Positions 11,843-64,000 of a stretch of 64,000 nt of DNA are shown in pieces. The translations under genes were made by a program, and so were the position numbers. Numbering within the stretch: position 1 is the first letter of the stretch; each line of letters begins with the position of its first letter. The stretch lies in assembly GCA_963818475.1 (NCBI GenBank), contig CAWFSF010000002.1:224001-288000 (forward strand), read 5' to 3'. The DNA comes from Nitrospirota bacterium (GTDB lineage Bacteria > Nitrospirota > UBA9217). Below the pieces are notes generated by a model. It was not told where the DNA came from, searched no databases, and was given only the letters and a program-made list of their open reading frames with translations.

Positions 11843-13181
11843 TCACTCCTCCTTAACGAACTCGGGATACAGCTTTTTCGCGCAATCCGGGCAGATGCCG
11901 TGGCTGAACTCGGCATCGGTGCGCTGCTGAATGAACACTTCCAAATGGTTCCAGAAGCCCTTGTCGTCGCGGATCTTTTTACATGACGCGCAGATCGGCA
12001 CCAGGCCCTTGAGCGTCTTGATGTTGTTCAGCGCGTCCTCATAGGCAAGAATGAGCTGCGACCGCTCCTGCTCCAGTTCTTTCTGGCTGCTGATGTCGCG
12101 AAAGGCGGTCACGACGGAAACTATTTTCCCGTCTTCCCAAATGGGGCTGGCCACGACCGCGATCGGGAAAACGGTGCCGTCCTTCCGCACGAACACCTCA
12201 TCGACGGACGTGTAGTTCTTCACCGCTCTTGATCACACTATGCATTCCGCAGGCCTCGAGCGGCTGAAGCGTCCCATCCGCCTTGCGGTAATGGACCAGG
12301 TCATGGGCGCCCTTTTCGTTCAGCTCTTCCCTGGTCCAGCCCAGAAGCCGCTCCGCCTCAGGATTCATGAACGTGATCTTTCCTTGCAGGTCGAGCACAT
12401 AGATGCCTTCGGCCAGATGCGAGGTGATATTCCGCAATTTCCTTTCACCGGCCAGGAGCATGTCTTCGAACTGCATCCGCGTCTCGGCCATCGTGTTGAA
12501 AGTCGCGGCCAGCTGCCCCAGCTCGTCATTCGAGCGGACCGGGACCCGGGCATGCATATCTCCGCGCTCCAGCGCCTGCGCCGCAACTGCCAGCAGATGA
12601 AGCGGTTTTGTCACTGATGAGACTAACAGGGCGGCCACAACGCTGCCTCCCAGAAAGAGCGCCGCAATGGCGCCGATGATCATGGCAATGATGTCATTGA
12701 TGTCACGTTCCACCGACGCTTGCGACATCCCCAGATACACGGTCGCTGCTCCGCTCTTCAACAGCGGAATGATGAATTCGTGCACCACTCCGCGCTCGGT
12801 GTTCAGATCCCGGTCAGAATACTGGCCATTGCTGCGCACCTCGCCGGGATATTCCTTTTGCAGGTCAAGGGGAAACCCGTTCTCAAAGGTATGCGCCACG
12901 ACCTCGCCGCGCGCGTTTCGGACGTAGATATACTCAATATCGGGCTCCTCATTCCTGACCTCCCTGAGGATTAGCGCAAGGTCGAGGAACTTCTCGGTCA
13001 GCACGGGATTGACGCTTTCGCGCGCAATGTTCCTGGCGAGGGAGAGTCCACGCTTTTCCAGTGTCACATGCAGTTTGTTATAGAGGACGGTCTTGGTGAG
13101 CACCACCAGCGACAACCCCAGCACGGCCACCATGCCCAGCAAACCCAGAATGAATTTTGTGCGCAACCTGATATTTCGCAT
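11843..13181 (-). CDS. Membrane sensor: TM-periplasmic-TM-HAMP-PAS plus Cys/His-rich C-terminal domain (frameshift near 12215)
   Basis: HAMP DELGQLAATFNTM, PAS MNPEAERLLGW, tail LKGLVPICASCKKIRDDKGFW...FSHGICPDC. Confidence 0.8.
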
Positions 13182-15730: not shown

Positions 15731-16633
15731 TTACAGCCGGATCAGGTCCTGATGATCGTCCTCATGGGGATTGACATGGATCATGACGTCCCCGACGTTC
15801 TGGAAGTGATCAAAGATGAGCTTCTTGACGGAGGTGGCAATGGCATGGGACTCCCGCACGGTCATCTCGCGGGTCCATGTCGAGCTTCAGGTCCACGATC
15901 AGGTACTGGCCCGAGCGGCGGCACCGGATCTCATGCACGTGCTCAACGCCGGCCACGCCTTCGGCAAGCATCCTGATGCCGTCGATGCAATCGTCGGCAG
16001 GCTTGCCGTCCATGAGGTCATGAGCAGCGCCCACGAAGGTCTCATATCCGATGTGGAATATGAAAAGCGAGGTGATCCCCGCGGCGATGGGGTCCAGCAC
16101 GGTGAGTCCGAAGAAGGCGCCGGTGACGCCGACAAGCGTGCTGACGGAGGTGATGGCGTCCTTCCGGTGGTCCTTGGCCACTGCGAGGATGGCCGGGCTT
16201 CCCAGCTTCGTGCCGGTCTTGAACGAATAGCGGTACAATGTTTCCTTGATGATGATGGTGAGGAAAGCCGCGGCCACAGCCATGGCAGCCGGAACCTGCG
16301 TACACGCCGTCGATGATCGCATGCGATCGACCGGACAAGGATCCATCCGCCGGTTGAGAAGATGACCAGGGACACGATGATGGCGGCGATGCTCTCGGCC
16401 TTGCCGTGTCCGTAGGGGTGCTTTTCGTCAAAGGGCTGGCTGCCGATGCTCAGGGCGATCATGCTCGAGCCCAGGGCGATGAAATCCGCCGCGCTCTCCA
16501 TGCCGTCGGCAAAGACCGCTTCCGACTTGCCGAAATGACCGGCCAGCAGTTTCATGATCATGAGCCCGGCGTTCACCCAGAACCCGATCTTGATGACCCT
16601 GCCTGCGCTCCCGAACCGTTCGCTCCGTTCCAC
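15731..16633 (-). CDS. Cation diffusion facilitator family transporter (frameshifts near 16320 and 15870)
   Basis: SEAVFADGMESAAD, HPYGHGKAE, DHRKDA, RRSGQYLIVDL; GAAGGAG SD plus GTG. Confidence 0.88.
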
Positions 16634-16768
16634 CTGGATCTCCTTCACTGCCGATAAACATGTTTGTCTTGAAAAAGAAGTTACAATAACTGGATGAAAA
16701 TGGCAAACAATAAATCTTTTTGACACTGATCTACACTGATTAAATATGATCCTTCCCAGACCTGAAAA

Positions 16769-30710: not shown

Positions 30711-32799
30711 TTACTTGATCAACGGAACGATCAGGAGTGCAACGATGTTGATGACCTTGATCATCGGGTTGATGGCCGGACCTGCGGTGTCCTTGTAAGG
30801 ATCGCCGACCGTGTCGCCCGTGACCGAGGCCTTGTGTCCGTCGCTGCCCTTCTTGTGCACAACGCCCTTGCTGTCCGTGACGCCGTCTTCAAAGGACTTC
30901 TTGGCATTGTCCCATGCGCCGCCGCCTGAGGTCATGGCGATGGCCTGGAACAGACCGGTCACAATGGCGCCGATGAGCACGCCGCCGAGGGCTTCTTTGC
31001 CCAGGAGGAGACCCACCACGACCGGAACAACCACCGGAATGAGCGCCGGGAGCATCATCTCATTGATGGCGCTCTTGGTCACGATGTCAACGCACTTGCC
31101 ATACTGGGGCTTGCCGGTGCCTTCCATGATGCCCGGGATCTCGCGGAACTGTCTGCGAACTTCTTCCACCACGCCGCCTGCAGCCTTAGCAACGGACTCC
31201 ATGAGGAGCGCGCCGAAGTAGTAGGGGAGCATGCCGCCGATGAACAGGCCGCAAAGGACCATGGGGTTCGAAAGATCGAACAGGATCGTTGAGCCGAAGG
31301 AACGTGAATATTCCGAGAACAGCACCAAAGCGGCAAGAGCTGCGGAGCCGATGGCATAGCCCTTGGTCACTGCCTTGGTGGTGTTGCCGACCGCATCGAG
31401 AGGATCGGTGATGTCGCGGATGGCCTGGGGAAGTCCGGCCATTTCAGCGACGCCGCCCGCATTGTCCGTGATCGGACCGTAGGAGTCGATTGCCACGACG
31501 ATGCCGGTCATGGAAAGCATGGACACGGCTGCAAGCGCGATGGCGAAGATGCCGCCCGAGGCCGCGTTCTCTGCACCGGAGAATCCGCCGCCAAGCCAGT
31601 ATGCGCCGAGGATCGAAGCAACGATCACGAGCACCGGCGCTGCGGTGGACTTCATGCTGACTGCGAGTCCGGCGATCACGTTCGTGCCGTGGCCGGTGAG
31701 GCTCGCCTGTGCAATGTGCTGCACCGGGGCCGTACTCTTTAGCAGTGAAATACTCGGTGATCCACACGATCAGGCCGGTGAGGGCAAGACCGATGAGGGA
31801 GATGAAGAACACGGTGTTCGCCGTGAATACGCCGGCATTGGCACCGAGGCTGTCGATAAAGCTCTTGGATACGAAGTAGAACGCTACTGCCGCGATAACG
31901 CCTGCAACGGCGAGGCCCTTGTACAAGGCGCCCATGATGTAGTTGGTCTTGCCGAGTCTTACGAAGTAGGTGCCGACGATGGAAGCGATGATCGAAACGC
32001 CGCCGAGCATAAGCGGGAACTCGATCCAGGGGCTGTCCGCGCCGAACACGGTCTTGGCGAGGAGCATGGCGGCCACGAGGGTCACCGTGTAGGTCTCATA
32101 GAGGTCGGCGGCCATACCAGCACAGTCGCCAACGTTGTCGCCAACGTTGTCGGCGATGACGGCCGGGTTGCGCGGGTCGTCTTCGGGGATGTTCTTCTCA
32201 ACCTTACCCACAAGGTCGGCGCCCACGTCAGCAGCCTTGGTGTAGATGCCGCCGGCGATACGGGCGAACACGCTCATGAGCGAGCAGCCGAAGCCGAGTC
32301 CGATAAGAGCAGTGGATACCTCTTCGGCCGGGGCCATGGATTTCGCGACAAAGTAAAAGCCGGCAAGGCCGATGATGCCGAGACCCACGACCATGATACC
32401 GGTCACGGAGCCGCCCTTGAATGCGAGGCTGAGCGCGGCCTGAAGGCCTTTGCTCGCTGCTGCTGCCGTACGCACGTTCGCGCGGAGCGACACCCACATG
32501 CCGATGAAACCGGCAAGGGCGGAACCCACGGTGCCGATGATGAATCCTGCTGCTGCCCACATCCCGAGTTTGGGAACGAAGGCCAGGACAAGCACCAGAA
32601 CTGCTGCGACCATTGCAACGGTCTTGTACTCGCGCGCCAGGAACGCATTAGCGCCTTCCTTCACCGCATTGGAAATGTCGATCATCTTCTGATTGCCTGC
32701 ATCCTGCTTGTTCACCCAGATCGCGGTTATGATGCCGTAAATAACTCCGGCAATGCCGCATCCCAGGGCAAAAAGAATCGTCATACTCATGTTACTCAT
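30711..32799 (-). CDS. hppA: Membrane proton-translocating pyrophosphatase (frameshift near 31725)
   Basis: [52 protein letters not shown]. Confidence 0.96.
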
Positions 32800-38319: not shown

Positions 38320-40362
38320 TTAGTGTTTTACAGGAGCTGCATCTTCAACCAGCTGAGCGTAGGCGACCTTCTTCACTTCCCACTTGTCAGTCGCAAGGTC
38401 GTACTTCGAGTTCACGAAGCACTTCCAGTTGGTGTCGTCCACCAGGTCGAAGTCGCCGCGATAGTAGTAGCCCGGATACCGGGACTCCTCACGGAACAGG
38501 ATGTGCCGTGCATGGGCCTCCACGGAGAGGATGCGGTGATAGTTCTCCCAGCAGCGCATCAGCTCGTGCAGGTTGCTTGCTGCCATCTTGGAGGCGTCTT
38601 CCTTCAGAACCTGGAGCTGCCTCAGACCTTCGTCGAGCATGGTCTTGGAGGTCATGTACCAGGTGCCGATGCCGCCAAAGTACTCGTCCGAGATCTTCTG
38701 CAGACGGGTCTGGAGCATCTTCGGCTTGATGTAGTTCGGGTTGATCTCTACAGCCGTGGTGTAGGTCTTGTGCTTCTCGTACACCTCGAAGGGCAGATAG
38801 AGCTCGGCGGCCAGATGGTCCTCCGTCTCCTTGATCGTCGGGGTGTAGTTCGGGTTGTCGAGCATGAACGCGATCGCGCTCTTTGCTGCGATGCGGCCCT
38901 CAGCATGCGAGCCCGAGGAGAACTTGTGGCCTGATGCGCCGCAGATGTCGCCGCACATAAAGAGGCCCTTTACGGTGGACGAGCGGTTGTAGTTGCCGGC
39001 CACCCATTTCTTGTTCCACTCTTCCGGCGCGCCGAGATCATCGGGACCGCAGCACCAGAAGCCTGCACAGCCTGCGTGCGAACCGAGGAGATAAGGCTCG
39101 GTCGGCATGATTTCGGAAGGAACTTTATCCGGCTCGATGTTCTTGGCAGCCCAGAGGCCGGCCTGGCCGATGGCCATATCGAGGAAGTCTTCCCATGCTT
39201 CTGCCTCGAGGTGCTTCACCTTCTTGGCGCCCTCTTTGTCGCCGAGCTTCTCCTTGAAGGTCTTGTTGATCGCTTCCATCGCGTGATGGGTGTTCATGAG
39301 GATCGGGCCTTTGCCGAGCTTCATGTCGCGCATCATGAGGTGGTTGCGGATGGCCGTGCCGAGGTTGTCGACATACTTGCCGTACTTGGCCTTGGCTTCT
39401 GCCAAGTGCTTCAGGATTGACGCAATAGTCTTCACCGAGGCTGTTGGTTGCCTTGGCCTTGAAGAACAGGAACCATGCGCCGACCGGGCCGTAACCGTCC
39501 TTGAAGCGGGCGGGCACGAAGCGGTTCTCCATCATGGTCAGCTCTGCGCCGGCCTGGAGGCCGAGAGCGTAACCGGAGCCGGAGTTCCATACCGGGTACC
39601 AGGCGCGGCCCTGGCCTTCCTGGGTCGACCGGGGACGGAACACGTTCACGGCGCCGCCGGCTGCCAGAACCATGGCTTTTGCCTTGAAGATGTAGATCTT
39701 GTTCTCACGGACGCTGAATCCGGCCGCTGCTGCAACGCGATTCGGCTCCTTGGCATCATTGTAGAGCTTCACGATGAACACGCGCTCGTAGTGGTTGGTC
39801 TTGACGCCGGTTGCTGCACGGTTGGTCTCGAGGGCCTTCTTCGCGGCTTCCGCCACGATGACCTTGTAGGACTCGCCGTTGATCATGATCTGCCACTTGC
39901 CTGAACGGACCGGCTTGCCGCCGTCCTTCAGCATGGTCTTTCCTGCTTCCTTTGCCTGGAAACCGTCGAGAGAGAAGCCGTCATCGCCCATCTTCCAGAT
40001 CGGCAGGCCCCACTCCTCGAAGAGCTGCACGGAATCATCAACGTGACGGCCGAGGTCGTAGATCAGGTCCTCACGGACGATGCCCATGAGGTCGTTCCGT
40101 ACCATCTTTACATAGTCCGCCGGATCATTGTCACCCATGTAGGTGTTGATGGCCGACAGACCCATGGCAACGGCGCCGGACCGGTCGGTCGCGGCCTTGT
40201 CAACCATGGTGATCTTGATCTTCTTGGGGTTTGCCCAGCGGGCGCCTTCAAACGCTGCGCCGCAGCACGCCATACCGCCGCCGATCAGGAGGAGATCGGT
40301 TTCGACCGTCTTCGATCTGCAGGCTTCTTGCAGAACGAAAACGTACAGGTTTCTTTTTCCAT
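38320..40362 (-). CDS. aprA: Adenylylsulfate reductase alpha subunit (frameshifts near 40315 and 39405)
   Basis: RSGAVAMGLSAINTY, WQIMINGESYK, FVPARFKDGYGPVGAW, EPYLLGSH, GHKFSSGS, ESRYPG. Confidence 0.96.
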
Positions 40363-50234: not shown

Positions 50235-50320
50235 TACGGAGCACGGATGACACGGCGGAAAGCAACGGATTGAAGATTTTGATCCGCATTTCCTCCGTGT
50301 ACATCCGTGTCCTCCGTGAT
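50235..50320. repeat. Inverted 8/9-nt periodic repeat between murA and hisD
   Basis: acggagcacggatgacacgg ... tccgtgtacatccgtgtcctccgtg. Confidence 0.65.
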
Positions 50321-50342
50321 AGATTTTCGAAGGGTTTTTCTC

Positions 50343-51635
50343 ATGAAGATCTTCGATTCACAGCACCAGGACATCGCATCGGAACTCAAACGGATCATCA
50401 ACCGCGGCGAGACCGCGACCGACGAAGTTGCCGTCGTTGTAAAAGAGGTCGTGGAGCGCGTGCGCAAGGAAGGCGATCCGGCCCTGCTCGAATACACGGA
50501 GAAGTTCGACCGGGTGACACTCACGCTCAAGGACATCAAAGTAACGCCGCAAGAGATCAAGGACGCCTATAGCCATGTTGATCCGAAAAAGGTGGATGCC
50601 CTGAAGCTTGCTGCCGCGAACATCCGCTCCTTCCACGAGAAGCAAAAGATCAGCTCCTGGGTGAACCAGGAAGCTGACGGCGTTATCCTGGGCCAGCTCG
50701 CGCGCCCGATCCGGAGCGCAGGCGTTTATGTGCCCGGCGGCAAGGCCTGCTACCCGTCATCAGTGCTCATGAACGTGATCCCGGCCAAGGTCGCGGGCGT
50801 GGAACAGCTCATCATGTGCTCTCCCGTTCCGGGCGGAAATCTGAACCCCTACATCCTTGTCGCAGCCGACATCGCCGGTGTGAGCGAGATCTACAAGATC
50901 GGCGGCGCCCAGGCCATCGCGGCCATGGCCTACGGCACGGCCACGGTCCCGAAGGTCGACAAGATCGTGGGCCCGGGCAACATCTATGTGGCAACGGCAA
51001 AGCGGTACGTCTTCGGCCAGGTGGACATCGATATGATCGCCGGACCGAGCGAGATCCTGGTCATTGCCGACGACAGCGCAGACCCGGCCTTTGTGGCATC
51101 GGATCTGCTCTCGCAGGCCGAGCATGATGAGCTTGCCTCGTCGATCCTGATCACGACCTCCCGCGTTTTGGCGGAACAGGTTAACGCCGAGGTCGAACGC
51201 CAGCTCGCGAACCTCTCGAGAAAAGAGATCGCCCGCAAGGCCATCGACCGCTTCGGAGCGATCGTGCTGGTCAAGACTCTGCAGGAAGCGGCCGAAGCAT
51301 CGAACTCCATTGCACCGGAGCATCTCGAGCTTGCCGTGGAGAAGCCCTTTGACCTTCTGGCGCTGATCAAGAACGCGGGCGCCATTTTCCTCGGCCATTA
51401 CACGCCCGAGTCCGTGGGCGACTATATCGCGGGACCGAACCATGTGCTCCCCACGGGCGGCACTGCCCGTTTCTTCTCGCCTCTGTCCACGGACAGCTTC
51501 ATGAAGAAGTCGAGCCTGATCTTCTATACCAGGGAAGGCCTTGACAAGGTTGCCGAGGCCGTGATGCAGATCGCCGATGTCGAAGGTCTGGAAGCACACG
51601 GGAATACTATCCGGATCAGGATGGCGAAGAAGTAA
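50343..51635 (+). CDS. hisD: Histidinol dehydrogenase
   Basis: GVYVPGG, IGGAQAIAA, GPGNIYV, IDMIAGPSE, SQAEHD, APEHLE, GPNHVLPT. Confidence 0.97.
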   Translation: MKIFDSQHQDIASELKRIINRGETATDEVAVVVKEVVERVRKEGDPALLEYTEKFDRVTLTLKDIKVTPQEIKDAYSHVDPKKVDALKLAAANIRSFHEKQKISSWVNQEADGVILGQLARPIRSAGVYVPGGKACYPSSVLMNVIPAKVAGVEQLIMCSPVPGGNLNPYILVAADIAGVSEIYKIGGAQAIAAMAYGTATVPKVDKIVGPGNIYVATAKRYVFGQVDIDMIAGPSEILVIADDSADPAFVASDLLSQAEHDELASSILITTSRVLAEQVNAEVERQLANLSRKEIARKAIDRFGAIVLVKTLQEAAEASNSIAPEHLELAVEKPFDLLALIKNAGAIFLGHYTPESVGDYIAGPNHVLPTGGTARFFSPLSTDSFMKKSSLIFYTREGLDKVAEAVMQIADVEGLEAHGNTIRIRMAKK

Positions 51636-52789: not shown

Positions 52790-53536
52790 TCAATAGAGCT
52801 TCCGGCAGGAAATCCCCGCCTTTTCAAAAGCCGCTCTCAACTCCTCGCCTTTCTCAGTAAAAAAATCTTCCGACCTGGCCTGCTGCATCCCGTGTTCCTT
52901 ATAGACCTGATCGGCATAGTGGTAATTATACCGGTCGATCAGTGCATGATCCACCTTGCCCTTCAGCATACCCGCCAACGCCTCAGCCCCGGGAAGCATC
53001 GGCGCGACCATGACAAAAGTCTGTATCCCCTCTGCATGAAGAATTCCCAATGCCTCGACCCGCTTCGCTATGGGCGGAGCACCCGGTTCGAATATCCTCC
53101 GCACTTTCTCATCGGCAGTAGTTATGGTGAAACCGACTTCTGCGTCCGCTGACCGTTTCAGGATCTCGAGGTCCCGCAGCACTAGCGGCGACTTTGTCTG
53201 GATCGTGACCGGCCATCCCTCTTCAACGAGAATTTCGAGACAGCGCCTGGTGAGCAGATACTTCTTTTCGAGCGGTTGATAGGCGTCACAGACCCCGCTC
53301 ATCCACACCCTCCCCTTCTGTTTTTTCTTCTTTAGCTCCCGAGCCAGAAGCTCAGGCGCACTGACCTTCACATCGACGAACGCTCCCCAGGGTTCCCGAT
53401 GCCCGGTAAACCGTTTCATGAACTTTGCATAACAATAGAGGCACTGATGCTGACACCCGACGTAGGCATTCAAGGCATAGTCGTAGACCAGCGACTTTGA
53501 TAAGATGGACTTTGCCTCGATCTCTTTGACGATCAT
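52790..53536 (-). CDS. SplB-like radical SAM protein
   Basis: NAYVGCQHQCLYCYA, DAYQPLE, IQTKS.LVLRD; TATAAT 5 nt upstream of ATG. Confidence 0.85.
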   Translation of the reverse strand: MIVKEIEAKSILSKSLVYDYALNAYVGCQHQCLYCYAKFMKRFTGHREPWGAFVDVKVSAPELLARELKKKKQKGRVWMSGVCDAYQPLEKKYLLTRRCLEILVEEGWPVTIQTKSPLVLRDLEILKRSADAEVGFTITTADEKVRRIFEPGAPPIAKRVEALGILHAEGIQTFVMVAPMLPGAEALAGMLKGKVDHALIDRYNYHYADQVYKEHGMQQARSEDFFTEKGEELRAAFEKAGISCRKLY

Positions 53537-53573: not shown

Positions 53574-54761
53574 TCAATAAAGAGAAGAACCGGCAGGACC
53601 TGTCAAGGAATCAGGAGCAGGTCCTGTCTGCGGCGCAGCCGCCGGTTTAATGGCGCCGAAGAGGTTCGGTTCGCCATTGCGAAAACCTGCCGTGAAATAG
53701 AGCGTATCAGAGGGGCCTGCCAGACCGTCATTTCCAAACCCCAGTCCATGGAGCCCGGGAATAATGATCGGAGTTCCTCCCCGCGCTGGCAGGAACCCGG
53801 CAAAGAGACCGCTTTCCTCGTCAAAGGCCGCTATCCTGCCGCTGCCGGAATTTCCCACGAGCAGATGATTGCCGAATTCGCCGAACCTGTCGGGCGCCTG
53901 TGCAATGCCCCAGGGCGCGTTCATCCAGGGCCCCTGCTCAAGCCTCATGACGAGTTCACCCTCGGTATCGAACACATCGACATAACCCGCTCCCTCTCCT
54001 GAAGCGGCATGGCGCGGATCTACGGCCTGGGCTGCAAAGGTGACGTACAGGAGGTTATTGATGTTCTGAATGTTGAAGGGCGCAAATCCGTCAGGAATTC
54101 CAGGATCGGTAAAGGCATGAACGGGAAGAAGGAGCAGGCTGAAGTCCCCATCAAAAACGTCGATCCTGTTTTGACGGAAGTTTACTGCATAGAGCCTGTT
54201 TCCGTCCTCAGCCTGTGCGATGGCGATGCCGGTATAGGCTGCGTCCGCTGAGTTGTCCACGACCAGGACAGCGGAATCGCGGTAGACGTCGCTGTTCCAA
54301 CCCTCGATCGTTCCGTCCCGGGTAGCGACCAGAAATTCTGCCGGATGATCGGGAGCAAGCTCGAAGTCCTTCGTACCGTTATAAACGATGCCCACTGGTG
54401 CCGGGTAGTCGTAGCGGCGGCCGGGATTTTCAGGAATTGAAATGATCAGCGGCGACAATCCTGGAAAGGATACTCCGTCTCCGTTGTAAGGCGTTACGCG
54501 TCCCCTGCCCTCATCAGCTACCCGCCACGGACCGTCAGGCGACCTTGCCATGCCCTGGGGATTCAGAAGGCTCGTATCGAAATTCAGCGTCCAGATCGCG
54601 CTGTTCGAGATAAGATTTATCGCATCGTACGCTGCAGAGGTCGATTGAGCATCTGACCATTTTGGGCTGGCCGCGATGAGCATCGAAATAAAGAAAAGCA
54701 TCAAATGCCGTGCAGTTCGCGCAATCATAACCATAACTCCAGATCGCTTTCGATCGACCAT
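53574..54761 (-). CDS. TIGR03118-like secreted beta-propeller protein
   Basis: LLNPQG, P.GIVYNGT, ATRDGTI.GWN, FAPFNIQNI, GAGYVDVFD, MNAPWG, LLVGN.G.G.I, LYFTAG. Confidence 0.75.
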   Translation of the reverse strand: MVDRKRSGVMVMIARTARHLMLFFISMLIAASPKWSDAQSTSAAYDAINLISNSAIWTLNFDTSLLNPQGMARSPDGPWRVADEGRGRVTPYNGDGVSFPGLSPLIISIPENPGRRYDYPAPVGIVYNGTKDFELAPDHPAEFLVATRDGTIEGWNSDVYRDSAVLVVDNSADAAYTGIAIAQAEDGNRLYAVNFRQNRIDVFDGDFSLLLLPVHAFTDPGIPDGFAPFNIQNINNLLYVTFAAQAVDPRHAASGEGAGYVDVFDTEGELVMRLEQGPWMNAPWGIAQAPDRFGEFGNHLLVGNSGSGRIAAFDEESGLFAGFLPARGGTPIIIPGLHGLGFGNDGLAGPSDTLYFTAGFRNGEPNLFGAIKPAAAPQTGPAPDSLTGPAGSSLY

Positions 54762-54973: not shown

Positions 54974-56212
54974 ATGAAAAAATGGCTGGCCATAATGACG
55001 GCAGCCGGCTTGCTCCTGTATCCTTTCGCGGCCATTGCAGCAGACTACGGGTCGCAGCCCTCGCAAGAACAACAGGTCCCTCCTGTAGCCCAGACGCTGG
55101 TACGCGAAGGCGATTTCGCTATCAAGCTGGCGGCTGAACTCGATCTGGGCAAACCATCCGATGAAGCAACTGCAGAAGATATGCTGACGGCTGCGGGCGT
55201 GGTCCCCGCGAACGGATGGCTCTCGGACTACCCGATGACCCCCGAGATCATCGGCCAACTGAAAGATGCGGTATCCAAAGCAGCTGCAGAAGGCAAGCTG
55301 AAGATGAGCACTGATGAAGCGGTCAAGGGCCTTTATTACCTCACCGCGCAGATGAACCTTCCTACACCGGCCGGATCGGAAAGTCAGTCACAGGAGGGGA
55401 CTTCCGCGGCGCCTCCCGCGGTCGTGAACAACTACTACTACGATCAGGGACCTCCGGTCATAACCTATTACCCGCCGCCCTACGATTACTGGTATCTGTA
55501 CAACTGGGTGCCCTATCCGGTCTTCTGGTTCGGCTTCTGGTTCCCGGGATACTATATCTGCCATAATTTCACCACCGTGGTAGTGAGCCCGGTTTTCTTT
55601 GACCGGAGGGTGGTCACGAACCATGTGATAGACCCGGTGACCCGAAGAGTCGCGATCGTCGATCCCGTCGCGCGGACGAGCAACGGCGTCAGACCAACGA
55701 CCGTTCTTCGAACAGCCGACGGAAGGACATTCGGCAGCCTTTCCGAGATGAGAAGGTCGACGGGCAGCCTGGTTACGAAGCGTCCGGAATCACGGACCAT
55801 GACCAACAGCGCTTACCGGGGTGGAAGTTTTAGTACACGCGAGTCACAGCAAGGTGCTGAAAGCATCTACCGGAGAAGCATCGACCGGACCCATTCCGCA
55901 CCAGCGGGCAGGTTAAGTTCGCAGGATGGCCGGGTCGGATCATACAGCCCGGCAGGACGGAAGATGGGTGAAGGGCAGCGGTACACAGCGCCCGCTCCGT
56001 CGGGGAGATCGTACCACGGACCGACGACCCTGAGGGAACAACGGCAGGCAGCGCCTCGTATGCCGGAGCGATCATATAATAACTATAACTACGGCGGATC
56101 GTGGCAAGGTGGGGACAGATCGTATTCAGCCCCGCGAGTGCCGTCGAGGACCTTCACTGCTCCGGAGCTACGAGGCATGGGGCAGGAAAGAGGTGTAAGG
56201 CGCGGCTTCTAA
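54974..56212 (+). CDS. Secreted hypothetical protein with Tyr/Pro-rich segment and Arg/Ser-rich tail
   Basis: AAGGAG SD, signal peptide ending AIA, 412-aa ORF followed by terminator. Confidence 0.75.
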   Translation: MKKWLAIMTAAGLLLYPFAAIAADYGSQPSQEQQVPPVAQTLVREGDFAIKLAAELDLGKPSDEATAEDMLTAAGVVPANGWLSDYPMTPEIIGQLKDAVSKAAAEGKLKMSTDEAVKGLYYLTAQMNLPTPAGSESQSQEGTSAAPPAVVNNYYYDQGPPVITYYPPPYDYWYLYNWVPYPVFWFGFWFPGYYICHNFTTVVVSPVFFDRRVVTNHVIDPVTRRVAIVDPVARTSNGVRPTTVLRTADGRTFGSLSEMRRSTGSLVTKRPESRTMTNSAYRGGSFSTRESQQGAESIYRRSIDRTHSAPAGRLSSQDGRVGSYSPAGRKMGEGQRYTAPAPSGRSYHGPTTLREQRQAAPRMPERSYNNYNYGGSWQGGDRSYSAPRVPSRTFTAPELRGMGQERGVRRGF

Positions 56213-56267
56213 AGCACACACAGCAGGTCAGATGTTTGCGTGTTCTAACGAAAACAAATGAGAAGCT

Positions 56268-56295
56268 AAAGGCGGCTACTTGGCTGCCTTTTTTT
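56268..56295 (+). terminator. Intrinsic terminator
   Basis: ggcggct-actt-ggctgcc followed by T7. Confidence 0.7.
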
Positions 56296-56385
56296 ATCAC
56301 CGTCTGATATACAGTCCCCAAGTAATGAAATCAACCTGCTCCGGAAAAGCAACCGGCCTCGCTTGCGAACCCGCACAATATTAAG

Positions 56386-56421
56386 TTGCATTTCATATCA
56401 TTTATGTGATAATTTATTGCA
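56386..56421 (+). promoter_or_regulatory. Candidate promoter of the receptor/peptide operon
   Basis: TTGCAT-16 nt-GATAAT with TGn extension in an AT-rich patch. Confidence 0.4.
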
Positions 56422-56591
56422 TTTAATCGAGCTGGTCAGCTCCGTCTCGGCACCCATGAGAACATTTCCGGGATTTTTGCGCCCGTCATAATCTGAGCAT
56501 AGCTGATTCTCTCCATCTACACCTTTGCAGTAACCATCTGTCCGAACTGCTGTGATAAAGAAAAACCTTCGCAGGCCGTCTCAAAATAAAC

Positions 56592-58525
56592 TTGCCGCAC
56601 AAATTACCAGAACGGAGAAAATTCTTGAAAACATCTGTGAGGATCAGTATCAGTGCCGCCATTACCTTCTGCCTGACTCTATCCGGCGCGCCTGCGCTCG
56701 CGCAAACAGCCGAGGAAAAAAGTTTCCTCTCGTTGTATTTCAGCGAGGAAGAGCTCGTGGTCCAGTCCGCGACCAGGAGCCCGCAGGCGCTGTCGCGGGT
56801 CGCGGAGAACATGACCGTCGTGACCGCGGCAGAGATCGAGCGCATGAACGCGCATACGCTCGCGGATGTGCTGAACACGGTCCCGGGGGTGGAGGTGGCG
56901 ATGATCGCCGGGCCGGGGTCCGCGTCAAGTATCGGTATCCTTGGATCAACGCCTGCTCACGTAACTGTTATTCTCGATGGGGTGGTGATCAATGATCTTT
57001 GGGGACCGAGGGCGGAAATCGGCAATATCCCGGTGCAGAATATCGAGAAGATCGAGATCGTGAAGGGGCCGGCGTCATCAGCATGGGGTTCGGCGCTCGG
57101 CGGCGTGGTGAATGTCATTACCAAGACCGGCAGGGTAGTGGACCAGGGGGGCGTGCTGTCCGGCTCATACGGCAACGCTACATTCGGCGATTTTCGCGCT
57201 GAGGTGCGCGGCAAAGCAGGACAGGTTCGGCTATTACCTGAACGCTGGGCAGGCTCCAGTCCAGGGATTTTACACCCAGCATCGAGCTCTCGAACAATAC
57301 CAATGCCTACGCAAAGCTGTCCTACGACCTCACGGACAAGACGGACATCAGGTTTTCATTCGCATACATACAAAAGAAAGACGAAATCCCCTACCCCGAT
57401 GAAATCGACGTAAATCCAGGGCAAAATCTTCAATCGACCATTGCGCTTAACACCAGCCTGGCAAACAACATGGACCTGAATATTTCCGCATGGGCACTCA
57501 ACAATTATTTAAACTCCCGCTGGATTATCATCAGCACGGGAGAGTCTTCCGATCACAATGCCGCTCTCACAGGCCACGGCGCAAGCGTGCGGCTGACCTG
57601 GAAGACGGGACAGCAGACCATTGTGGTTGGGGGCGAGGCTGATGAAAAGGAAACTTCCGTTCCTCCTTTCGTGCTGAATGGGGTCATTCGGAAGCAGGCG
57701 ATCTATGTGAATGATACGATCGCTTTTGACAAGCTCACGGTGATCCCCGGGATCAGGTTCGAAGACACGAGCTCGACCGGTGGTTTTACCGCCCCGAGTC
57801 TCGGCATCACATACGCCCTGGGGAATGACACCATCTTCCGGACCTCTGTTGCACGCGGGTTTAACACCCCCGGAGCGGGCGCTTCCCTGGCGAGCGCTTC
57901 ATTTACCGATTCGGGTGGCACCACTACCTGGCTGCCGAACCCCGATTTGAAGATGGAGACTGTCTGGTCCTATCAGGCAGGCATCGAATCCGCGGCAAAG
58001 AAATACTTCTGGCTGAAGCTTTCGCTCTTCAGAAACGATATTAGAAACCTGGCGGTGGCGGTGACGCAAGAAACCGCACCCTTTACATTTACAACGCAGT
58101 ACGTTAACTTCGGCCGCAACCGTCAGGAGGGTGTGGTGCTGGAGACCAAAACCATGCCAATCTACCACACCTCTCTGCACGCGGCAGCCGAGGTCCTTAC
58201 GATAAAAGACTTGTATACCGGAGAAACCATCGCGGGCCAGCCGGTGCAGGTTTATGATGTCGGATTGAGCTACGATGACAAGGAGTCGTTCAATGCCGTG
58301 CTTCAGGGAAGACATATCAACTGGAACTTAAAAGATCCAAGCATTCAGACGCGCAAGACCATGATTGTGGACCTTACCGTGAACAAGAGGGTCCATCAGG
58401 TGAAGGCCACCAGTATTTCGATTTTTGCGAGCGGCCACAATCTGCTGAACACAAAGCAGATCTGGTCGACTTCCTGGCCGAACCCGGAACGCTGGTATGA
58501 GGCTGGGCTGAGGTATGATTTCTGA
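56592..58525 (+). CDS. TonB-dependent receptor (frameshifts near 57215-57300; start uncertain)
   Basis: Plug motifs VVQSATR, LADVLNTVPG, IEKIEIVKGPASSAWGSALGGVVNVITK; barrel motif NPDLKME; C-terminal YEAGLRYDF. Confidence 0.9.
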
Positions 58526-58574
58526 TCGAGGCGGCAGCTTTGCCGCTATCTTGTTTTTCTGGGGGGTGACGAAC

Positions 58575-58673
58575 ATGCTGAAACGCATCACTGTTGTAAA
58601 AAGGGGCGTCGGGAAGTTCGGCGGCGCCACAATTGGTTGCTGTATCGCTGGATCAGGACAGAATAAAAAATAG
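58575..58673 (+). CDS. 32-aa putative RiPP precursor (geopeptide-like), MLKRITVVKRGVGKFGGATIGCCIAGSGQNKK
   Basis: Translated by hand, below ORF-track cutoff; GGGGGTG SD upstream; Cys-Cys core; directly upstream of a SPASM radical SAM gene. Confidence 0.8.
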   Translation: MLKRITVVKRGVGKFGGATIGCCIAGSGQNKK

Positions 58674-58689
58674 ACGTCCGCTTTGACCT

Positions 58690-58721
58690 GAAGGAGGGTG
58701 AAAACCCTCCTTCCCCTTTTT
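58690..58721 (+). terminator. Hairpin between precursor peptide and maturase genes
   Basis: gaaggaggg-tgaaaa-ccctccttc followed by ccc and T5. Confidence 0.65.
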
Positions 58722-58741
58722 CAGGGAGCTATTCATAAACC

Positions 58742-60039
58742 ATGCCTTTCTCGACCTACTCCATACAGATCGATCATCCTGATGACCCTGATCAGGTGGT
58801 CCTTTTCTCGACCAGGACAGCTGCAACCGTCAACCTCCATCGCGACGTAATCAAGGACATCGAGGCAGGGCGCCTTTCTTCCGACGAGCGAGAAACACTC
58901 AGCGAACTCGGCATCGTCGTCCCGGATCTGAAGGACGAACGCGAGGAGATGCGTTCATACGTTGACGATATGAATGCTGCGAGCAAAACGCTTACGGTTA
59001 CCCTGGTCATGAGCCTGGACTGTAATCTTGCGTGCCCCTACTGTTTCGAAGGGACGCGCAAAGGGAAATATTATCTGTCTGAAGAAACTGCTAATGATTT
59101 TCTTCGCTTCATCGGCAACAGGCTTACGGAACTGGATGAACTTAATATCAGATTTTATGGCGGCGAACCTCTTCTGAGCTTCGACATGATCTACCGCATC
59201 GCCCGGGAGCTGTCAAAGTCCGCGTGCGAAGCACAAGGTAACATTCAGCTTCGGTTTCGTCACAAACGGAACGCTCTTGACTCGACCTGTTGTGGAGAAA
59301 CTTAAACCTCTCGGACTGAAGTCCGCATATGTCACTCTCGACGGACCACGGGAGATGCACGACATGTCGCGGCCCTTCAAAAACGGCAGCGGGTCGTTCA
59401 ATACGATCATCGGCAATCTCCGGAACGTCTCCGACCTGATCGAGCTCCATCTCGGCGGGAATTATTTGCAGGCGAATTACCGGGAGTTCCCGCGCATGCT
59501 CGACTTCCTGATTGCGCAACGGCTTGGGCCTGACGTGGTCTCCTTAATGAGCTTCAGCCCCATCATGAATGAGGATGCGAAGTTCTGCCCCGATTATCAC
59601 GACGGCTGCTCGAATGAAAACGAACCCTGGGTCGCGGAGGCCGGGCTTTACCTCAGGCGGGAAATACTTGCCCGCGGCTATCGCACCGATGAAGTGCTGC
59701 CAACAGTCTGCATGCTTGAACGTCACGATCATCTGGTCGTCAACTGGGACGGCGTGCCTGTACAAATGCCCGGGCTTGATCGGGCGAAAGGAATATGGCG
59801 CCGGCACGCTAAAATCGGGTTTGCTTGACTACACCGCGACTCACGACCTCGGAAACTGGAAGAACGAGGAATGTCTTAGCTGCAAGTATCTTCCGCTCTG
59901 CTTCGGCGGATGCAGACAAACGAAATTGATCTGCGAGGGCACGATGAAAGGCATTGAGTGCAAAAAAGAATTTTTCGACAAGACGCTTGAAGCGCTTGTG
60001 CTGCAGGACATAGAATACAGCAAGGCACCCGAAAGTTAA
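58742..60039 (+). CDS. Radical SAM/SPASM peptide maturase (frameshifts near 59215 and 59755)
   Basis: CNLACPYC, FYGGEPLL, VTNGTLL, VTLDG; SPASM VCM...LYKC...CLSCKYLPLCFGGC...C; ~80-aa N-terminal RRE-sized extension. Confidence 0.9.
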
Positions 60040-60101
60040 TCGTATTTTCGACTGGTGGATTCTACCACTTTTTGGTATGATACCTCTGTGGTTATTCCCT
60101 C

Positions 60102-61023
60102 ATGAATATCGTTTCCCGGAACACGCTTCAACCTTCCCCTGAAAACGCTGCTTATCGCAGCCCCGCTCGTGGTGCGTCTGTTCGCTGCCCCGCTCCCAGC
60201 CCTTGCCTCTGACGTTCTTATTATAAAAGACGCCGACATAAAACTCTACCAGGAGGCCATCCAGGGGTTCCAAAAAACGTGCGACTGCAGCGTGCGCGAA
60301 ATGGATCTTTCGGACCTGGATGCGATCGAGACGGCTCTCAAAGCGAAGCCGGACGCTGTTGTTGCTTTGGGTACGCAGGCGCTCAGAAGAACCAGGACGA
60401 TCAGGAATGTTCCGCTGATCTATGCCATGGTGATGCCCTCCGAGGCCGCCGAAGCCACCGGAGGGAATGTGTCCGGCGTAAGCATGGACATTGCTCCGGC
60501 AGAATACCTCGCCGCCATGGCAGGCCTGTTCCCCGACGCAAAAAGGATCGGAGTACTCTTTAACCCGGACCAGACCGGTCCGTACGTCAAGGATGCTTCG
60601 CTTGCTGCGCGTAAAAATGATATCTCGCTGATCCTGAAGCCGGTCAGCAATGCGCGCAAGGCGCCTGCGCTTCTCAATGAACTGCGGGGAAAGATAGACG
60701 TCTTGTGGATGCTGCCGGACACGACGATCTTGAATTCCGAAATGGTCGATGCCATACTGCTGTTTTCCTTCCAGCATAACGTTCCGGTATTTTCCTTTTC
60801 AAAAAAATATGTGCAAATGGGCGCTGTGGCTGCACTAACCATCGACGCCCGGACTATAGGCAAACAGGCAGGTGAACTGGCCCGGAGCCTGCTCCAGAAT
60901 GGCAACGGTCCCCTGCGGGCCTATGCCACGAACCCCCGTCTGATCGTAAACACGAAAGTCGGCGCAAAATTAGGAGTACGGATCAATGGCGAACTTTTCC
61001 AAAATGCTGAAAAAGTGGAGTAA
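60102..61023 (+). CDS. ABC-type periplasmic substrate-binding protein (probable frameshift near 60115)
   Basis: Signal ending ALA; PDAVVALGT.A, NVSGVSM, KRIGVLFNP, DVLWMLPD, YVQMGA..A, GKQAGELA. Confidence 0.8.
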
Positions 61024-61027
61024 CGGC

Positions 61028-62407
61028 ATGCATGTTTTCGGCAGAAACAGCCTGGGTTTCAGGCTGATCAGCGTATTCATTGCCATTATCGTGATCGTGA
61101 TCTTGTCGATTTCGGTTTTCTCCATCGCCCGATGGAGGAACAACGCGCTTGCGACGCTCAGAAGCAAGGGCGCGACCATGACCAGGCTCCTTTCTGTGAG
61201 CGCGCGGATCGGCATTTTTTCCGAGAACGTAGACCAGCTCAAAGAAGCTGCGGACAGCTATATCGCAGTACGGGATGTTCTTTTTATCGGCATCTACAAT
61301 GCCGACAGGAAGCCGCTGTACCTCTCCGATCCGGCTTTTCCCGGCAGCGACACCATTTCGGAAAGCGGAGCAAAACCTCGAAGGGAGCCGGCTGCGCAAA
61401 CTGAAGGCCTGACACAGGAATTCTCAAGGCCGGTAACGCTCACCCTGTTTTCGAATGAAGCAGCGTCGCTCTACCTCGGCGACGGCGATACGGGTTCGAA
61501 AGAGCAGGTGATAGGATACGTTAAGCTCGTGCTGGGCCAGGAATCCTTGCGCCATGAGATCAATAGGATCCTGGTGCAAAATGCGATCATCGCCCTTCTC
61601 TTCATCTGCCTGAGCATCGTGATCGTGTCCCTCTGGGTGAAGAAGATCACGAAACCTCTTGAAACGCTGACACGGGAAGTCAAGGCCCTGGGCAAGGGAA
61701 GCGATGTCCCGTACGTGCCGGTCCAGAGCATGGATGAGGTCGGCAGGCTCGCAACCGAGTTCAACTCCATGCTCGATGAACGAAAGATCGCGGAACAAAC
61801 TCGCAAAAATATCCTGAGAGACCTGCATGACGGCGTCGGCGGCATGATGACGAACATCGTCATCCTCTCGGAGATCAACCGGGCCAAGCCGCTGCCCGAG
61901 GAGATCGCCAAAGCATTCGCCACGATTTCCGCGCTGTCACGCGACGGTATTGCCGAGATCAGGAGCCTGATCTATAGTCTCGACCGGAACGATCTGAACT
62001 GGCCCTCGCTTATCGCGGAGATGAGAAGCCTGGGCTATAAGATGACTGAACCCCATGCGATCGTTTTCGAAATGACCTCGAAGGTGGAAGAAGGTGTCGC
62101 CGAGCCGGGAAGTTTACTTTGTATGCACCTTTTCAAGATCTATCGCGAGTCGCTCACCAACGCCATCAAACATGCTCAAGCAGCGAAGATCCGCGTGGAA
62201 ATGTCCGTCAGGAATGAGCGGATCCTGCTCGCTGTCCGTGACGACGGGCGGGGCTGCAATACCGCAGAACTGTCCGCTGAAGGCAGGGGCTTCGCCAATA
62301 TGAGATCGCGCGCTGCTGAGATCGGCGGTACCGTGACGATTAACGGCGGCAACGGCACCTGTGTTTCCGTCGACATACCGCTTCCGATAACGTCCGGGCC
62401 GCACTAG
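61028..62407 (+). CDS. Membrane sensor histidine kinase (HAMP, HisKA_3-type, HATPase)
   Basis: Two TM helices, DEVGRLATEFNSM, RDLHDGVG, ESLTNAIKHA, DDGRG, GRGFANMRSRA. Confidence 0.9.
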   Translation: MHVFGRNSLGFRLISVFIAIIVIVILSISVFSIARWRNNALATLRSKGATMTRLLSVSARIGIFSENVDQLKEAADSYIAVRDVLFIGIYNADRKPLYLSDPAFPGSDTISESGAKPRREPAAQTEGLTQEFSRPVTLTLFSNEAASLYLGDGDTGSKEQVIGYVKLVLGQESLRHEINRILVQNAIIALLFICLSIVIVSLWVKKITKPLETLTREVKALGKGSDVPYVPVQSMDEVGRLATEFNSMLDERKIAEQTRKNILRDLHDGVGGMMTNIVILSEINRAKPLPEEIAKAFATISALSRDGIAEIRSLIYSLDRNDLNWPSLIAEMRSLGYKMTEPHAIVFEMTSKVEEGVAEPGSLLCMHLFKIYRESLTNAIKHAQAAKIRVEMSVRNERILLAVRDDGRGCNTAELSAEGRGFANMRSRAAEIGGTVTINGGNGTCVSVDIPLPITSGPH

Positions 62408-62511
62408 CCGGCGTGCGCTAACCAGCGGGTCCTGAACGACGCTCATAAACCGCGCCATGACCCTGGGCAAACAAGGATCATCGGGAATGGGAGATTTCAA
62501 ATACTGAGTTC

Positions 62512-64000
62512 CTAGTTATTTTTTTCCTTCAGCTCCAGAAACCGCTTCAGCTCTCCCTTCAATTTCCGGGGAACTGTTATCGGCTTCGAGCACCGCTTGC
62601 CGGCGCAGAGATACGCTGCTTCCCTCTTCGGATATCCCAGCTTTTTTATCAGATCACCATCTTTTGCGATCGAAAGCACTCTGACAGATTTTTTCGGCAC
62701 GTAAACGCCTCTGATCGCTGCAAGGTATGCTCTTGCTGTTTTTCCTTTCGCGATGACCGCTATCTCGACCGGGTCCTCCACTGCCCACAGGAGCGCGTTG
62801 CCATAGGCAGCGGCATTCGGCGTAAAGTCCTGAGCGGTCCCGCGTAAAACAGCAAGCGCCTCATCGCGGATCTTTTTTTGTTCCTGAATCTCCTCAACAA
62901 AGAGCATCCTTCCGAGAAACCGGAGAGCCCGATAGTTGGCAAGATCATCGTTCACCTTTGACAAAACACCGGGAGCGATCGGCGCGGCGATCGGTGCAGC
63001 AAGCGACTGCCGGAATCGCTTCGCATTTGCATCATAGAACCTGCTCAGGATAAGCACGTTGATCTCTTTAGCCGCCTGCAAGTAGCGCCTCTCGCCTGTT
63101 GCGCCATACAGGTCGAGCAGGGCCGATCCGGCGAGCGCGTTGTCGGACAAAAGACCGTCAAGGTGGCCCGTTCCGTTGCGGGCGAAATGATAAACTCCCG
63201 CGTCTTTGCCAAACAGCTTTTCCAGCAGATAGTCTGCGCCCTTCCTTGCCATGTCAAGATATTGTTGCTCGCCAACGGCACCATGCGCCGCGACCAGTGC
63301 GCTGATCATGAGCGACGACGAATCGGCATACACCGTCCTGTCGACAGCAGGCTTCTCCATTCCCTTCCGCTTCCGGCTCTGGTAGTACGCTTCGTCGGCA
63401 TCCTGGCTGCCGAAGAACGCACCGCTTGCCGCGTCATAGAGGTTCAGCCGGACGTACCGGATGCACTTCCGGGCGATCTTCTTATATTCGCTGCTTTCGA
63501 AGACCAGGGAGGCTTCCGCATAGTTCCTGATCATGCCGGCATTCACCTCGAGCATCTTTTCATAGTGCGGTTCCGACCAGTCCGGTATCGTGGCATAGCG
63601 AAAGAACCCGCCTTCGACATGGTCAAAGAGCCCGCCCTGTGCCATATGATCGAGGGTCGTGGTCACGATCCGTTTGACCAAGGGGTTCTTTCGCTCCGCA
63701 TATCGCGCAAGAAGAAGATCGATAGACTCCGGACTGGGGAACTTCTGGCCTGTGCCAAAACCGCCATGCTTTTCATCAAAAGCATCTGCAACAACCATGA
63801 CGATCGCCCGCAGGTCTTCTTCGCCGGGTGCGCTTGCGGCCTCTGCCGCGGGAAGCTCGTGCTGCGCCATGGCAGTCCTTGTTTCCTCGATCCAGCCCGT
63901 GATAGTGCCGCGGTCATTTTCGAAGATGTCGGAGAGCCGCTTCAATCTCCCGAGCATGTCGTCCGGTGTGATATAGGTGCCTCCGGTGAGGACCTCACCC
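62512..64000 (-). CDS. YyaL/SSP411-like thioredoxin-domain protein (5' end outside window)
   Basis: TGGTY, FDEKHGGFG..KFP, GGLFDHVEGGFFRYAT..WSEPHYEKML, FFGSQDAD. Confidence 0.85.
   Translation of the reverse strand, partial: GEVLTGGTYITPDDMLGRLKRLSDIFENDRGTITGWIEETRTAMAQHELPAAEAASAPGEEDLRAIVMVVADAFDEKHGGFGTGQKFPSPESIDLLLARYAERKNPLVKRIVTTTLDHMAQGGLFDHVEGGFFRYATIPDWSEPHYEKMLEVNAGMIRNYAEASLVFESSEYKKIARKCIRYVRLNLYDAASGAFFGSQDADEAYYQSRKRKGMEKPAVDRTVYADSSSLMISALVAAHGAVGEQQYLDMARKGADYLLEKLFGKDAGVYHFARNGTGHLDGLLSDNALAGSALLDLYGATGERRYLQAAKEINVLILSRFYDANAKRFRQSLAAPIAAPIAPGVLSKVNDDLANYRALRFLGRMLFVEEIQEQKKIRDEALAVLRGTAQDFTPNAAAYGNALLWAVEDPVEIAVIAKGKTARAYLAAIRGVYVPKKSVRVLSIAKDGDLIKKLGYPKREAAYLCAGKRCSKPITVPRKLKGELKRFLELKEKNN

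Follow-up and report, generated by a model that had tools for sequence, protein, structure and literature searches.

A candidate geopeptide cassette linked to a TonB-dependent receptor, a binding protein, and a sensor kinase in a Nitrospirota bacterium

Background

The closest catalogued relative of the locus described here is the geopeptide system, which consists of a short precursor peptide (NCBIfam TIGR04229) and a radical S-adenosylmethionine (SAM) enzyme (TIGR04280, "geopeptide radical SAM maturase"). The family was named by curators about a decade ago and carries the label 'hypoth_equivalog' in NCBIfam, and our literature search on geopeptide, TIGR04280, and TIGR04229 found no paper. In the present study, we analyzed a cassette of this kind from a Nitrospirota bacterium (assembly GCA_963818475.1). 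The window, that is, the whole stretch of DNA analyzed, is 64,000 nt long (contig CAWFSF010000002.1, positions 224,001 to 288,000), and coordinates below count from its first letter. On the plus strand at 56592-62407, five co-directional genes encode a TonB-dependent receptor, a precursor peptide, a radical SAM/SPASM enzyme, a periplasmic binding protein, and a sensor histidine kinase. A first-pass annotation of the same sequence had proposed these five genes as a peptide-signalling circuit, and domain matches and reading frames confirmed the kind that it stated for each. Like the geopeptide system, the cassette has an enzyme whose three frame fragments together match the family model from end to end and a short peptide with adjacent cysteines (CC) directly upstream, and our searches recovered Geobacteraceae loci of the same family; the window peptide differs in its basic leader and in the lack of a match to TIGR04229.

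Radical SAM-modified peptides, re-import of a modified peptide via a TonB-dependent receptor (methanobactin), binding-protein-dependent kinases (LuxPQ and TorTS), and the kinase ComP are known. Methanobactin operons (MbnA, MbnB, MbnC, MbnT, and MbnE) resemble the cassette in joining a ribosomal modified peptide, a TonB-dependent receptor, and an orphan binding protein, and in the re-import of the cell's own product, which is proposed here. However, they use other maturases and another binding-protein family, are regulated by a sigma/anti-sigma pair, and encode an exporter, whereas the window cassette has a kinase after the binding protein and no exporter. General Pfam and NCBIfam scans gave no match of the MbnB or MbnC type among the five genes; no search was aimed at MbnB/MbnC. 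ComQXPA of Bacillus subtilis likewise combines a modified peptide, a HisKA_3-type membrane kinase, and a LuxR/NarL-type regulator (found here in two related loci, L029 and L033). However, ComX is prenylated without a radical SAM enzyme, the monoderm host has no outer-membrane receptor or binding protein, and ComP senses directly via its membrane domain. By the standards of ComQXPA- and Agr-like systems, the cassette and its scanned neighbours also lack a dedicated export or processing gene, and no cognate regulator gene was found in the window. In LuxP-LuxQ and TorT-TorS, a binding protein is docked on the periplasmic domain of a kinase, an arrangement predicted here by co-folding and by co-variation (r 0.90); the cassette differs from them in the binding-protein family (PF04392), in the sensor domain (sCache_4, GacS-like), and in the TonB-dependent receptor gene upstream. 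Finally, the NF053590/NF053592 triads, which follow the YfiBNR logic, similarly place a small BtuB-sized receptor gene beside those of a periplasmic protein and a HAMP sensor, but the periplasmic partner in the window is of PF04392 and not YfiR-like, and both models match only weakly here.

Results and discussion

Conservation of the partnership

Among 41 genomes of the same phylum, this one included, nine contain a TIGR04280 gene that scores over the cut-off. In these near relatives, all 12 loci with a true TIGR04280 gene also contain the binding protein and the sensor, and nine contain the receptor; the three loci without a receptor begin at or near a contig end. None of the partners was found at a locus (L039) with a sub-threshold enzyme. 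A wider scan with one genome per species gave 151 relatives, of which the best 80 were analyzed; these loci are labelled as Nitrospirota/Thermodesulfovibrionia, Candidatus Sulfobium, Dissulfurispiraceae, Geobacteraceae, and Desulfobacterales. Our models of receptor, binding protein, sensor, and enzyme derive from members of the cassettes themselves, with score thresholds that we chose. By these models, the receptor is present in 73 of the best 80 loci, the binding protein in 66, the binding protein with the sensor directly behind it in 59, and all three partners in 55. Flanks of 5 kb or more on each side are available for 38 loci, and here the receptor is found in all 38 and the three partners together in 36; in the two exceptions (L065 and L094), the receptor/peptide/enzyme core persists without the binding protein. 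The first-pass annotation held that its circuit would fall if receptor, binding protein, and kinase did not accompany the peptide and enzyme elsewhere; instead, receptor, binding protein, and adjacent sensor do so in these 36 of 38 well-flanked loci. The gene neighbourhood of the maturase homologues, which it had suggested examining, is conserved as a partnership, though in three gene orders.

In the most frequent order (45 loci), the genes are co-directional as in the window. In the second (12 loci, confirmed with Pfam in L069 and L116), the binding-protein and kinase genes lie divergently upstream, and in the third (five loci, all labelled as Geobacter or Geobacteraceae), the receptor gene is on the opposite strand. 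The partners thus stay linked although gene order differs between Nitrospirota and Geobacteraceae, and because the linkage survives rearrangement across two phyla, these neighbourhoods argue for the cassette being a functional unit. Sensor outputs vary: HisKA_3 kinases with or without a PAS domain occur, and elsewhere HisKA hybrid kinases with a receiver domain; in L029 and L033, the LuxR-type regulator gene directly follows the kinase gene. Although the parts are of known kinds, we did not find the conserved combination, or the peptide-free triad discussed below, described in the literature searched, and our searches found no paper that links the geopeptide family to a receptor, a binding protein, and a kinase.

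The explanation of this partnership that we favour is that the cassette is a produce-and-sense unit of two modules, in which a self-made modified peptide is re-imported and sensed. We consider its chances about even, and weigh it below against its alternatives.

Maturase and precursor peptide

The enzyme gene (58742-60039) is present as three frame fragments that match TIGR04280 with 164.5, 204.5, and 120.9 bits over model positions 1-164, 180-345, and 337-427. The scores sum to about 490 bits against a cut-off of 400, and no single frame passes; the genome also encodes two intact paralogues, which reach 584.6 and 562.5 bits. The radical SAM motif CxxxCxxC is present (CNLACPYC, within 58742-59305), and the SPASM model TIGR04085 matches the third fragment (34.5 bits, cut-off 27). 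In an alignment of nine intact relatives, the three cysteines of CxxxCxxC and eight others are invariant, which is the pattern expected of SPASM enzymes. By these matches, the enzyme very probably belongs to TIGR04280, a family that is catalogued and still uncharacterised. Among solved structures, 5wgg (1e-26) is closest; we take it to be the thioether-forming CteB. The next-best curated families are the cysteine-peptide maturases CefB, TIGR04463, PapB, and SCIFF. The SCIFF/ranthipeptide maturases (CteB, PapB, and CefB) share with the window enzyme the radical SAM and SPASM domains, extra cysteines, and cysteine-bearing substrates. However, the window enzyme stays far below their cut-offs, its substrate has only two adjacent cysteines, and its chemistry is predicted.

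The precursor gene (58575-58673) encodes a peptide of 32 aa with the CC pair (MLKRITVVKRGVGKFGGATIGCCIAGSGQNKK), as the first-pass annotation had reported; that annotation also recognized the pairing with the radical SAM/SPASM enzyme, but missed both the catalogued geopeptide family (TIGR04229/TIGR04280) and the frame breaks described below. CC is invariant in all 11 peptides from the window and 10 loci of near relatives, and 70 of 80 further loci encode a homologous CC peptide 5' of the enzyme. The leader is of the type K-R-I-x-V-L-K-K-G, is acidic in Geobacteraceae, and is replaced by long Lys/Ala/Thr repeats in some loci. The tail after CC has 6-12 residues and is either hydrophobic/aromatic (CC-x-G-A-F-I-P-Y...) or small, polar, and basic; the window peptide has a basic leader and a tail of the latter type. 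Its position 5' of the enzyme, the hydrophobic leader motif (I/V-x-V-L-x-x-G), and the invariant CC are geopeptide features. TIGR04229 recovers only peptides of the Geobacteraceae type, all under its cut-off of 30 bits (27.7, 19.9, 14.1, and 11.2 bits), and misses the window peptide; we therefore classify the latter, from its sequence, as a divergent geopeptide, that is, a divergent branch of a catalogued uncharacterised family.

Two further observations concern the precursors of other loci. Lys/Ala/Thr-rich repeats (KKKATKKKA...) of at most about 90 residues, which recall histone H1 tails, replace or extend the leader that precedes the usual CC core in L056-L058, L060, L063, L067, L079, L089-L093, L098, L100, L103, and L107. 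A single enzyme gene is preceded by a tandem pair of almost identical precursor genes in L102 (9603-9924) and L105 (9618-9933).

Binding protein and sensor kinase

The binding protein (60102-61023; the body has an alternative start, GTG 60169) matches PF04392 (ABC_sub_bind) with 89.4 bits against a gathering cut-off of 25.9, and its solved relatives are 3lkv, 6hni, and 3lft. As the first-pass annotation had stated, no ATP-binding cassette (ABC) permease or ATPase gene accompanies it in the cassette. Assignment as the tryptophan transporter protein TrpX was rejected (71.8 bits, cut-off 390). All three high-scoring binding proteins of this genome are encoded in such cassettes.

The kinase gene (61028-62407; alternative ATG 60986) begins with ATG 61028, 4 nt past the binding-protein stop that ends at 61023, in agreement with the spacing noted earlier for a HisKA_3-type kinase. 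Its product has a transmembrane segment, an sCache_4-like periplasmic domain, a second transmembrane segment, and HAMP (30.1 bits), HisKA_3 (37 bits), and HATPase_c (47.9 bits) domains. The sCache_4 match (20 bits) is just below the cut-off of 22.1 and passes in paralogues and orthologues; the periplasmic domain also matches 5o7j weakly. The model NF053592 ('YfiR-like protein-associated' kinase) gives 30.5 against a cut-off of 194.

Co-folding of the sensor periplasmic domain with the mature binding protein, with alignments of 40 rows each as inputs, gave a score of 0.73 (runs 0.73, 0.77, and 0.71), whereas the best of three controls reached 0.01. The runs had at least 94% of contacts in common, and the predicted local distance difference test (pLDDT) value of the partners was at least 87. 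Of 80 solved complexes, 58 reach the mark of 0.73, as do 2 of 110 mismatched pairs, a scale that is only rough with own alignments. When the Protein Data Bank was searched with the sequence of either partner, none of the listed entries was titled as a complex of both; because of this, memorization of a known structure seems an unlikely source of the score. In the model, the sensor loop L148-Y149-L150 (61469-61477) contacts binding-protein residues G68, M87, M106, P183, F210, S211, and K213, which are invariant or near-invariant, and the loop is conserved as E-x-LYF across 40 sequences with few variants. At the position aligned with this loop, the sensors of the peptide-free triads lack the LYF motif but carry an acidic-hydrophobic loop. 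The prediction supports a complex in which the binding protein is docked to the periplasmic domain of the sensor. According to PMC10443332, solved PF04392 proteins bind aromatic amino acids (Trp, Tyr, or Phe), and for this reason it is tempting to place the aromatic loop of the sensor in the ligand cleft of the binding protein. The earlier suggestion that the binding protein presents a ligand to the kinase gains support from this predicted contact.

TonB-dependent receptor

The receptor gene (56592-58525) encodes a Plug domain (56592-57413; 76.3 bits) and a barrel (57470-58525; 112 bits), and its product contains the TonB-box-like stretch ELVVQSATR; TonB is present in this genome. Among curated families, receptors for B12, haem, and siderophores match best, but with scores so far under the cut-offs that no specific family passes, and NF053590 (TOL_0244 receptor) gives 65.5 against a cut-off of 645. 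Six open reading frames in this genome match the cassette-derived receptor model; because two genes are split, they represent four receptor genes, of which three belong to such cassettes. The sole receptor gene outside the three cassettes (G000, contig C6, 613296-615874) adjoins a TonB gene.

A dedicated receptor of this type is also typical of metallophore uptake, and the main rival to a peptide signal is a peptide metallophore with uptake-coupled sensing. The CC peptide would bind a scarce thiophilic metal outside the cell, the complex would enter via the receptor, and the binding protein and the kinase would report its arrival and induce the operon, in the manner of siderophore and methanobactin systems. 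The nearest curated receptors named above fit this proposal, and two adjacent invariant cysteines could bind a metal. Moreover, no other partner is as constant as the receptor, which is present in 73 of 80 loci and is kept where the binding protein and the kinase are missing, and methanobactin operons join a modified peptide, the TonB-dependent receptor MbnT, and the orphan binding protein MbnE. However, the cassette contains no inner-membrane importer, reductase, or metal-responsive regulator; the closest enzymes, presumably including 5wgg, form thioethers, which would consume the thiols; and three divergent cassettes in one genome suit separate signal channels better than a single metal need. 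The aromatic ligands of solved PF04392 proteins (PMC10443332) also speak against a metal. We therefore regard the metallophore as unlikely, though it is the alternative to be taken most seriously.

Co-variation and peptide-free triads

Distance matrices were calculated for 40 complete loci (one of the 40 peptides, that of L118, is a wrong pick that overlaps the enzyme start). The highest correlation was that of binding protein with sensor (r 0.90), followed by that of receptor with enzyme (r 0.81); receptor with binding protein reached only 0.66. Mantel correlations of the peptide core with each protein ranged from 0.38 to 0.46, and none of 2000 permutations reached these values. Co-evolution of peptide and receptor was nevertheless rejected as an explanation of the Mantel values, which we attribute to shared history because they fall to partial correlations of 0.06-0.17 when the enzyme distance is fixed.

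In relatives, a second tier of binding proteins, scoring 140-250 bits as against 370-474 in the cassettes, is encoded without the enzyme. At 16 such loci, an adjacent sensor was found in 12, a receptor nearby in 11, and the enzyme in none, and the receptor gene often abuts the binding-protein gene. In the 41 genomes searched, top-tier binding proteins occur only in enzyme-bearing cassettes. A triad of receptor, binding protein, and sensor thus exists as a general arrangement, of which the geopeptide cassettes are a branch with the peptide and the maturase inserted beside the receptor. Our search of the literature on PF04392/COG2984 proteins and on receptor/binding-protein/kinase combinations found no account of such a sensing triad.

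These triads bear on a second alternative, in which the cue read by receptor, binding protein, and kinase comes from outside and has nothing to do with the peptide, which is a mere output of the same operon, such as an antibiotic or an intracellular product. The 16 loci without peptide or enzyme agree with it, as does the lack of any excess co-variation of the peptide core with the receptor or the binding protein. On the other hand, the receptor stays beside the peptide and the enzyme when the binding protein and the kinase move or vanish, its distances follow the enzyme better than the binding protein, and the restriction of top-tier binding proteins to enzyme-bearing cassettes is not what a separate cue would suggest. 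We consider this alternative distinctly improbable.

Frame breaks in the window copy

In the assembled sequence, the receptor gene is divided between two reading frames and the enzyme gene among three, and the likely start of the binding protein (ATG 60102) is out of frame with its body. The receptor gene has single extra bases near 57213 and 57245, the enzyme gene has them near 59234 and 59760, and a fifth is at 60125, 5' of the binding-protein body. In relatives' contigs from four public metagenome runs, 90 to >99% alike to the region, one base is absent at each of these five positions. Omission of the five bases with a script gave open frames of 654, 432, and 313 codons for the receptor, the enzyme, and the binding protein, which fit the cassette-derived models end to end without an in-frame stop; the repaired enzyme scores 626 bits over positions 1-428 of 429. 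With base 60125 omitted, ATG 60102 and a signal-peptide-like N-terminus join the binding-protein frame. In one relative's contig, the binding-protein gene has an additional base at 60614 and lacks one at 60622, a compensated change that alters about three residues.

Other genes of the window are also split. On the minus strand, an H+-pyrophosphatase (30711-32799) and a cation efflux protein (15810-16726) each lie in two overlapping frames, broken at model positions 332/334 and 90/100, respectively, and a flavoprotein (38320-40273) is probably split too, since its two frames match different domain families. Because of these other split genes, we read the breaks as assembly errors, which we consider quite likely and judge to be a few times as likely as real decay. 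A uniform error rate of the assembly was rejected, as rpoB and rpoC (8 kb) of the same assembly have no frame break; if errors, they are therefore unevenly spread.

The alternative is that the window copy is a decaying, non-functional paralogue, that the five insertions are real, and that the strain uses its other two cassettes. Five breaks fall within 3 kb, none of them in a long homopolymer, while the 8 kb of rpoB and rpoC are intact; no regulator gene adjoins the window copy; and another genome has one intact cassette (L032) and one much broken (L038). However, all five differences are one-base insertions whose omission leaves no in-frame stop, and the read-through frames score over their full length. 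Furthermore, at least two unrelated window genes, probably a third, and both paralogous cassettes of the same genome are broken likewise, and the assembly consists of 7 contigs at 91% completeness, which is taken as a sign of long reads. Thus, we think real decay of the window copy rather improbable. In L038 (G010:C6:163000-182999), the enzyme is in five pieces and the binding protein, the barrel, and the sensor in two pieces each; this locus may be a real pseudogene cluster.

Proposed mechanism

The produce-and-sense reading starts from three observations, namely the gene identities, the conserved partnership, and the triads without the peptide pair. The receptor, peptide, and enzyme would form the first module, and the binding protein and the sensor the second. 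The 32-aa precursor would be modified at or around the invariant CC by the cytoplasmic radical SAM/SPASM enzyme, with thioether cross-links as the most likely chemistry. Just 3' of the peptide gene, a hairpin followed by a T-run (58690-58723; 10 pairs, 6 GC) has a z-score of -3.27, and none of 200 shuffles folded equally well. It is likely a partial terminator that sets the peptide-to-enzyme ratio, letting peptide transcripts outnumber enzyme transcripts. The modified peptide would leave the cell by a route outside the cassette and return across the outer membrane via its dedicated TonB-dependent receptor. On the GacS-like periplasmic domain, the PF04392 protein may then report the ligand, presumably the peptide, to the kinase, which would control transcription through a LuxR/NarL-type regulator; such a regulator gene adjoins the paralogous cassettes, not the window cassette.

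Several results weigh against this reading. Export is its weakest point, as the cassette encodes no exporter, leader peptidase, or inner-membrane transporter. No ABC permease, ATPase, or other inner-membrane transporter gene was found in the five-gene cassette, and no transporter or peptidase for the peptide among the five genes or the scanned neighbours (a 442-aa frame at 50307-51635 lies outside the scan). A tblastn search with a receiver-plus-LuxR regulator gave no match for a response regulator within the window range. The window peptide gave no match to TIGR04229 (a model of 22 positions, cut-off 30 bits) at E up to 10. The distances of the peptide core track those of the enzyme at least as well as those of the receptor, the binding protein, and the sensor, and with the enzyme distance fixed, the low partial correlations given above remain. 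Since triads occur without the enzyme, they appear to work elsewhere with other ligands that are not encoded as peptides, and the ligand sensed here need not be the cassette's peptide. The intact rpoB and rpoC and the position of the five extra bases outside long homopolymers leave some probability to a real inactivation of the window copy; both paralogous cassettes carry frame breaks as well. As to export, a half-size membrane protein of the major facilitator superfamily type (about 190 aa) is encoded after the enzyme in only five loci (L069 at 11302-11868, L078, L101, L102, and L114), and is a possible exporter there.

The earlier proposal that a peptide signal is re-imported, captured, and read by the kinase therefore stands in part: the co-occurrence of the partners and the docking model lend it support, and the peptide-specific co-variation with receptor and binding protein that it led one to expect did not appear in the 40 loci. 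A bolder form of the produce-and-sense reading would be a new kind of signalling in a diderm anaerobe, cell-to-cell or autocrine, in which the peptide enters the periplasm only via its own TonB-dependent gate. The PF04392 protein would be pre-docked on the GacS-like sensor domain with the E-x-LYF loop in its conserved cleft, and the peptide would displace or reshape this contact and so switch the kinase. We offer this form as a speculation that is unlikely to hold in full.

Boundaries and flanking genes

On its 5' side, the cassette is delimited by a terminator-like hairpin on the plus strand (56268-56291), a stem of 10 pairs with a T-run behind it, at which the preceding gene (54974-56212) ends. 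The first-pass annotation had let the system begin at 56386; the open frame of the receptor begins at 56592, in another frame, and 56386 is the first copy of a direct repeat, TTGCATTT(C/A)AT, present in two copies 31 nt apart within a candidate promoter region (56386-56427, plus strand). By eye, TTGCAT, a 16-nt spacer, and GATAAT preceded by TG form a candidate promoter in this region, for which the promoter/terminator scan gave no promoter entry. The TTGCATTT repeat recurs upstream of receptors in few other loci and is not conserved as an operator. The 8-mer GTATTTCA is enriched (12 of 54 loci) but lies inside the coding TonB-box region, and was for that reason rejected as an operator. No known RNA family or riboswitch was found in 55500-62800 at E up to 1, so the gene of the BtuB-like receptor is not preceded by a recognisable cobalamin riboswitch.

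The downstream neighbour (62512-63957, minus strand) is convergent. Upstream are a small radical SAM protein (52790-53536, minus strand), a 395-aa protein without a family match (53574-54761, minus strand), and the product of the gene that ends at the hairpin (54974-56212, plus strand), a proline/tyrosine-rich protein of 412 aa with a signal-like N-terminus, also without a family match, for which no counterpart was found in 13 related loci searched.

Implications

The findings tie the geopeptide family to a three-part sensing module, consisting of a TonB-dependent receptor, a PF04392 binding protein, and a HAMP sensor, and thus an orphan modified-peptide family gains a testable function. The predicted docking on a periplasmic domain of the GacS/BarA type suggests a possible signal-input route for that type of sensor. 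The system is small, with five genes and a peptide of 32 residues, and is well suited to heterologous expression. We know of no characterised peptide signalling system in Nitrospirota or Geobacteraceae; if the peptide is the ligand, the cassettes would represent peptide signalling gated by active outer-membrane transport in these organisms. Furthermore, if the bolder signalling proposal were true, several orthogonal cassettes in a genome would be separate signal channels, and the peptide-free triads would use this switch for other imported ligands.

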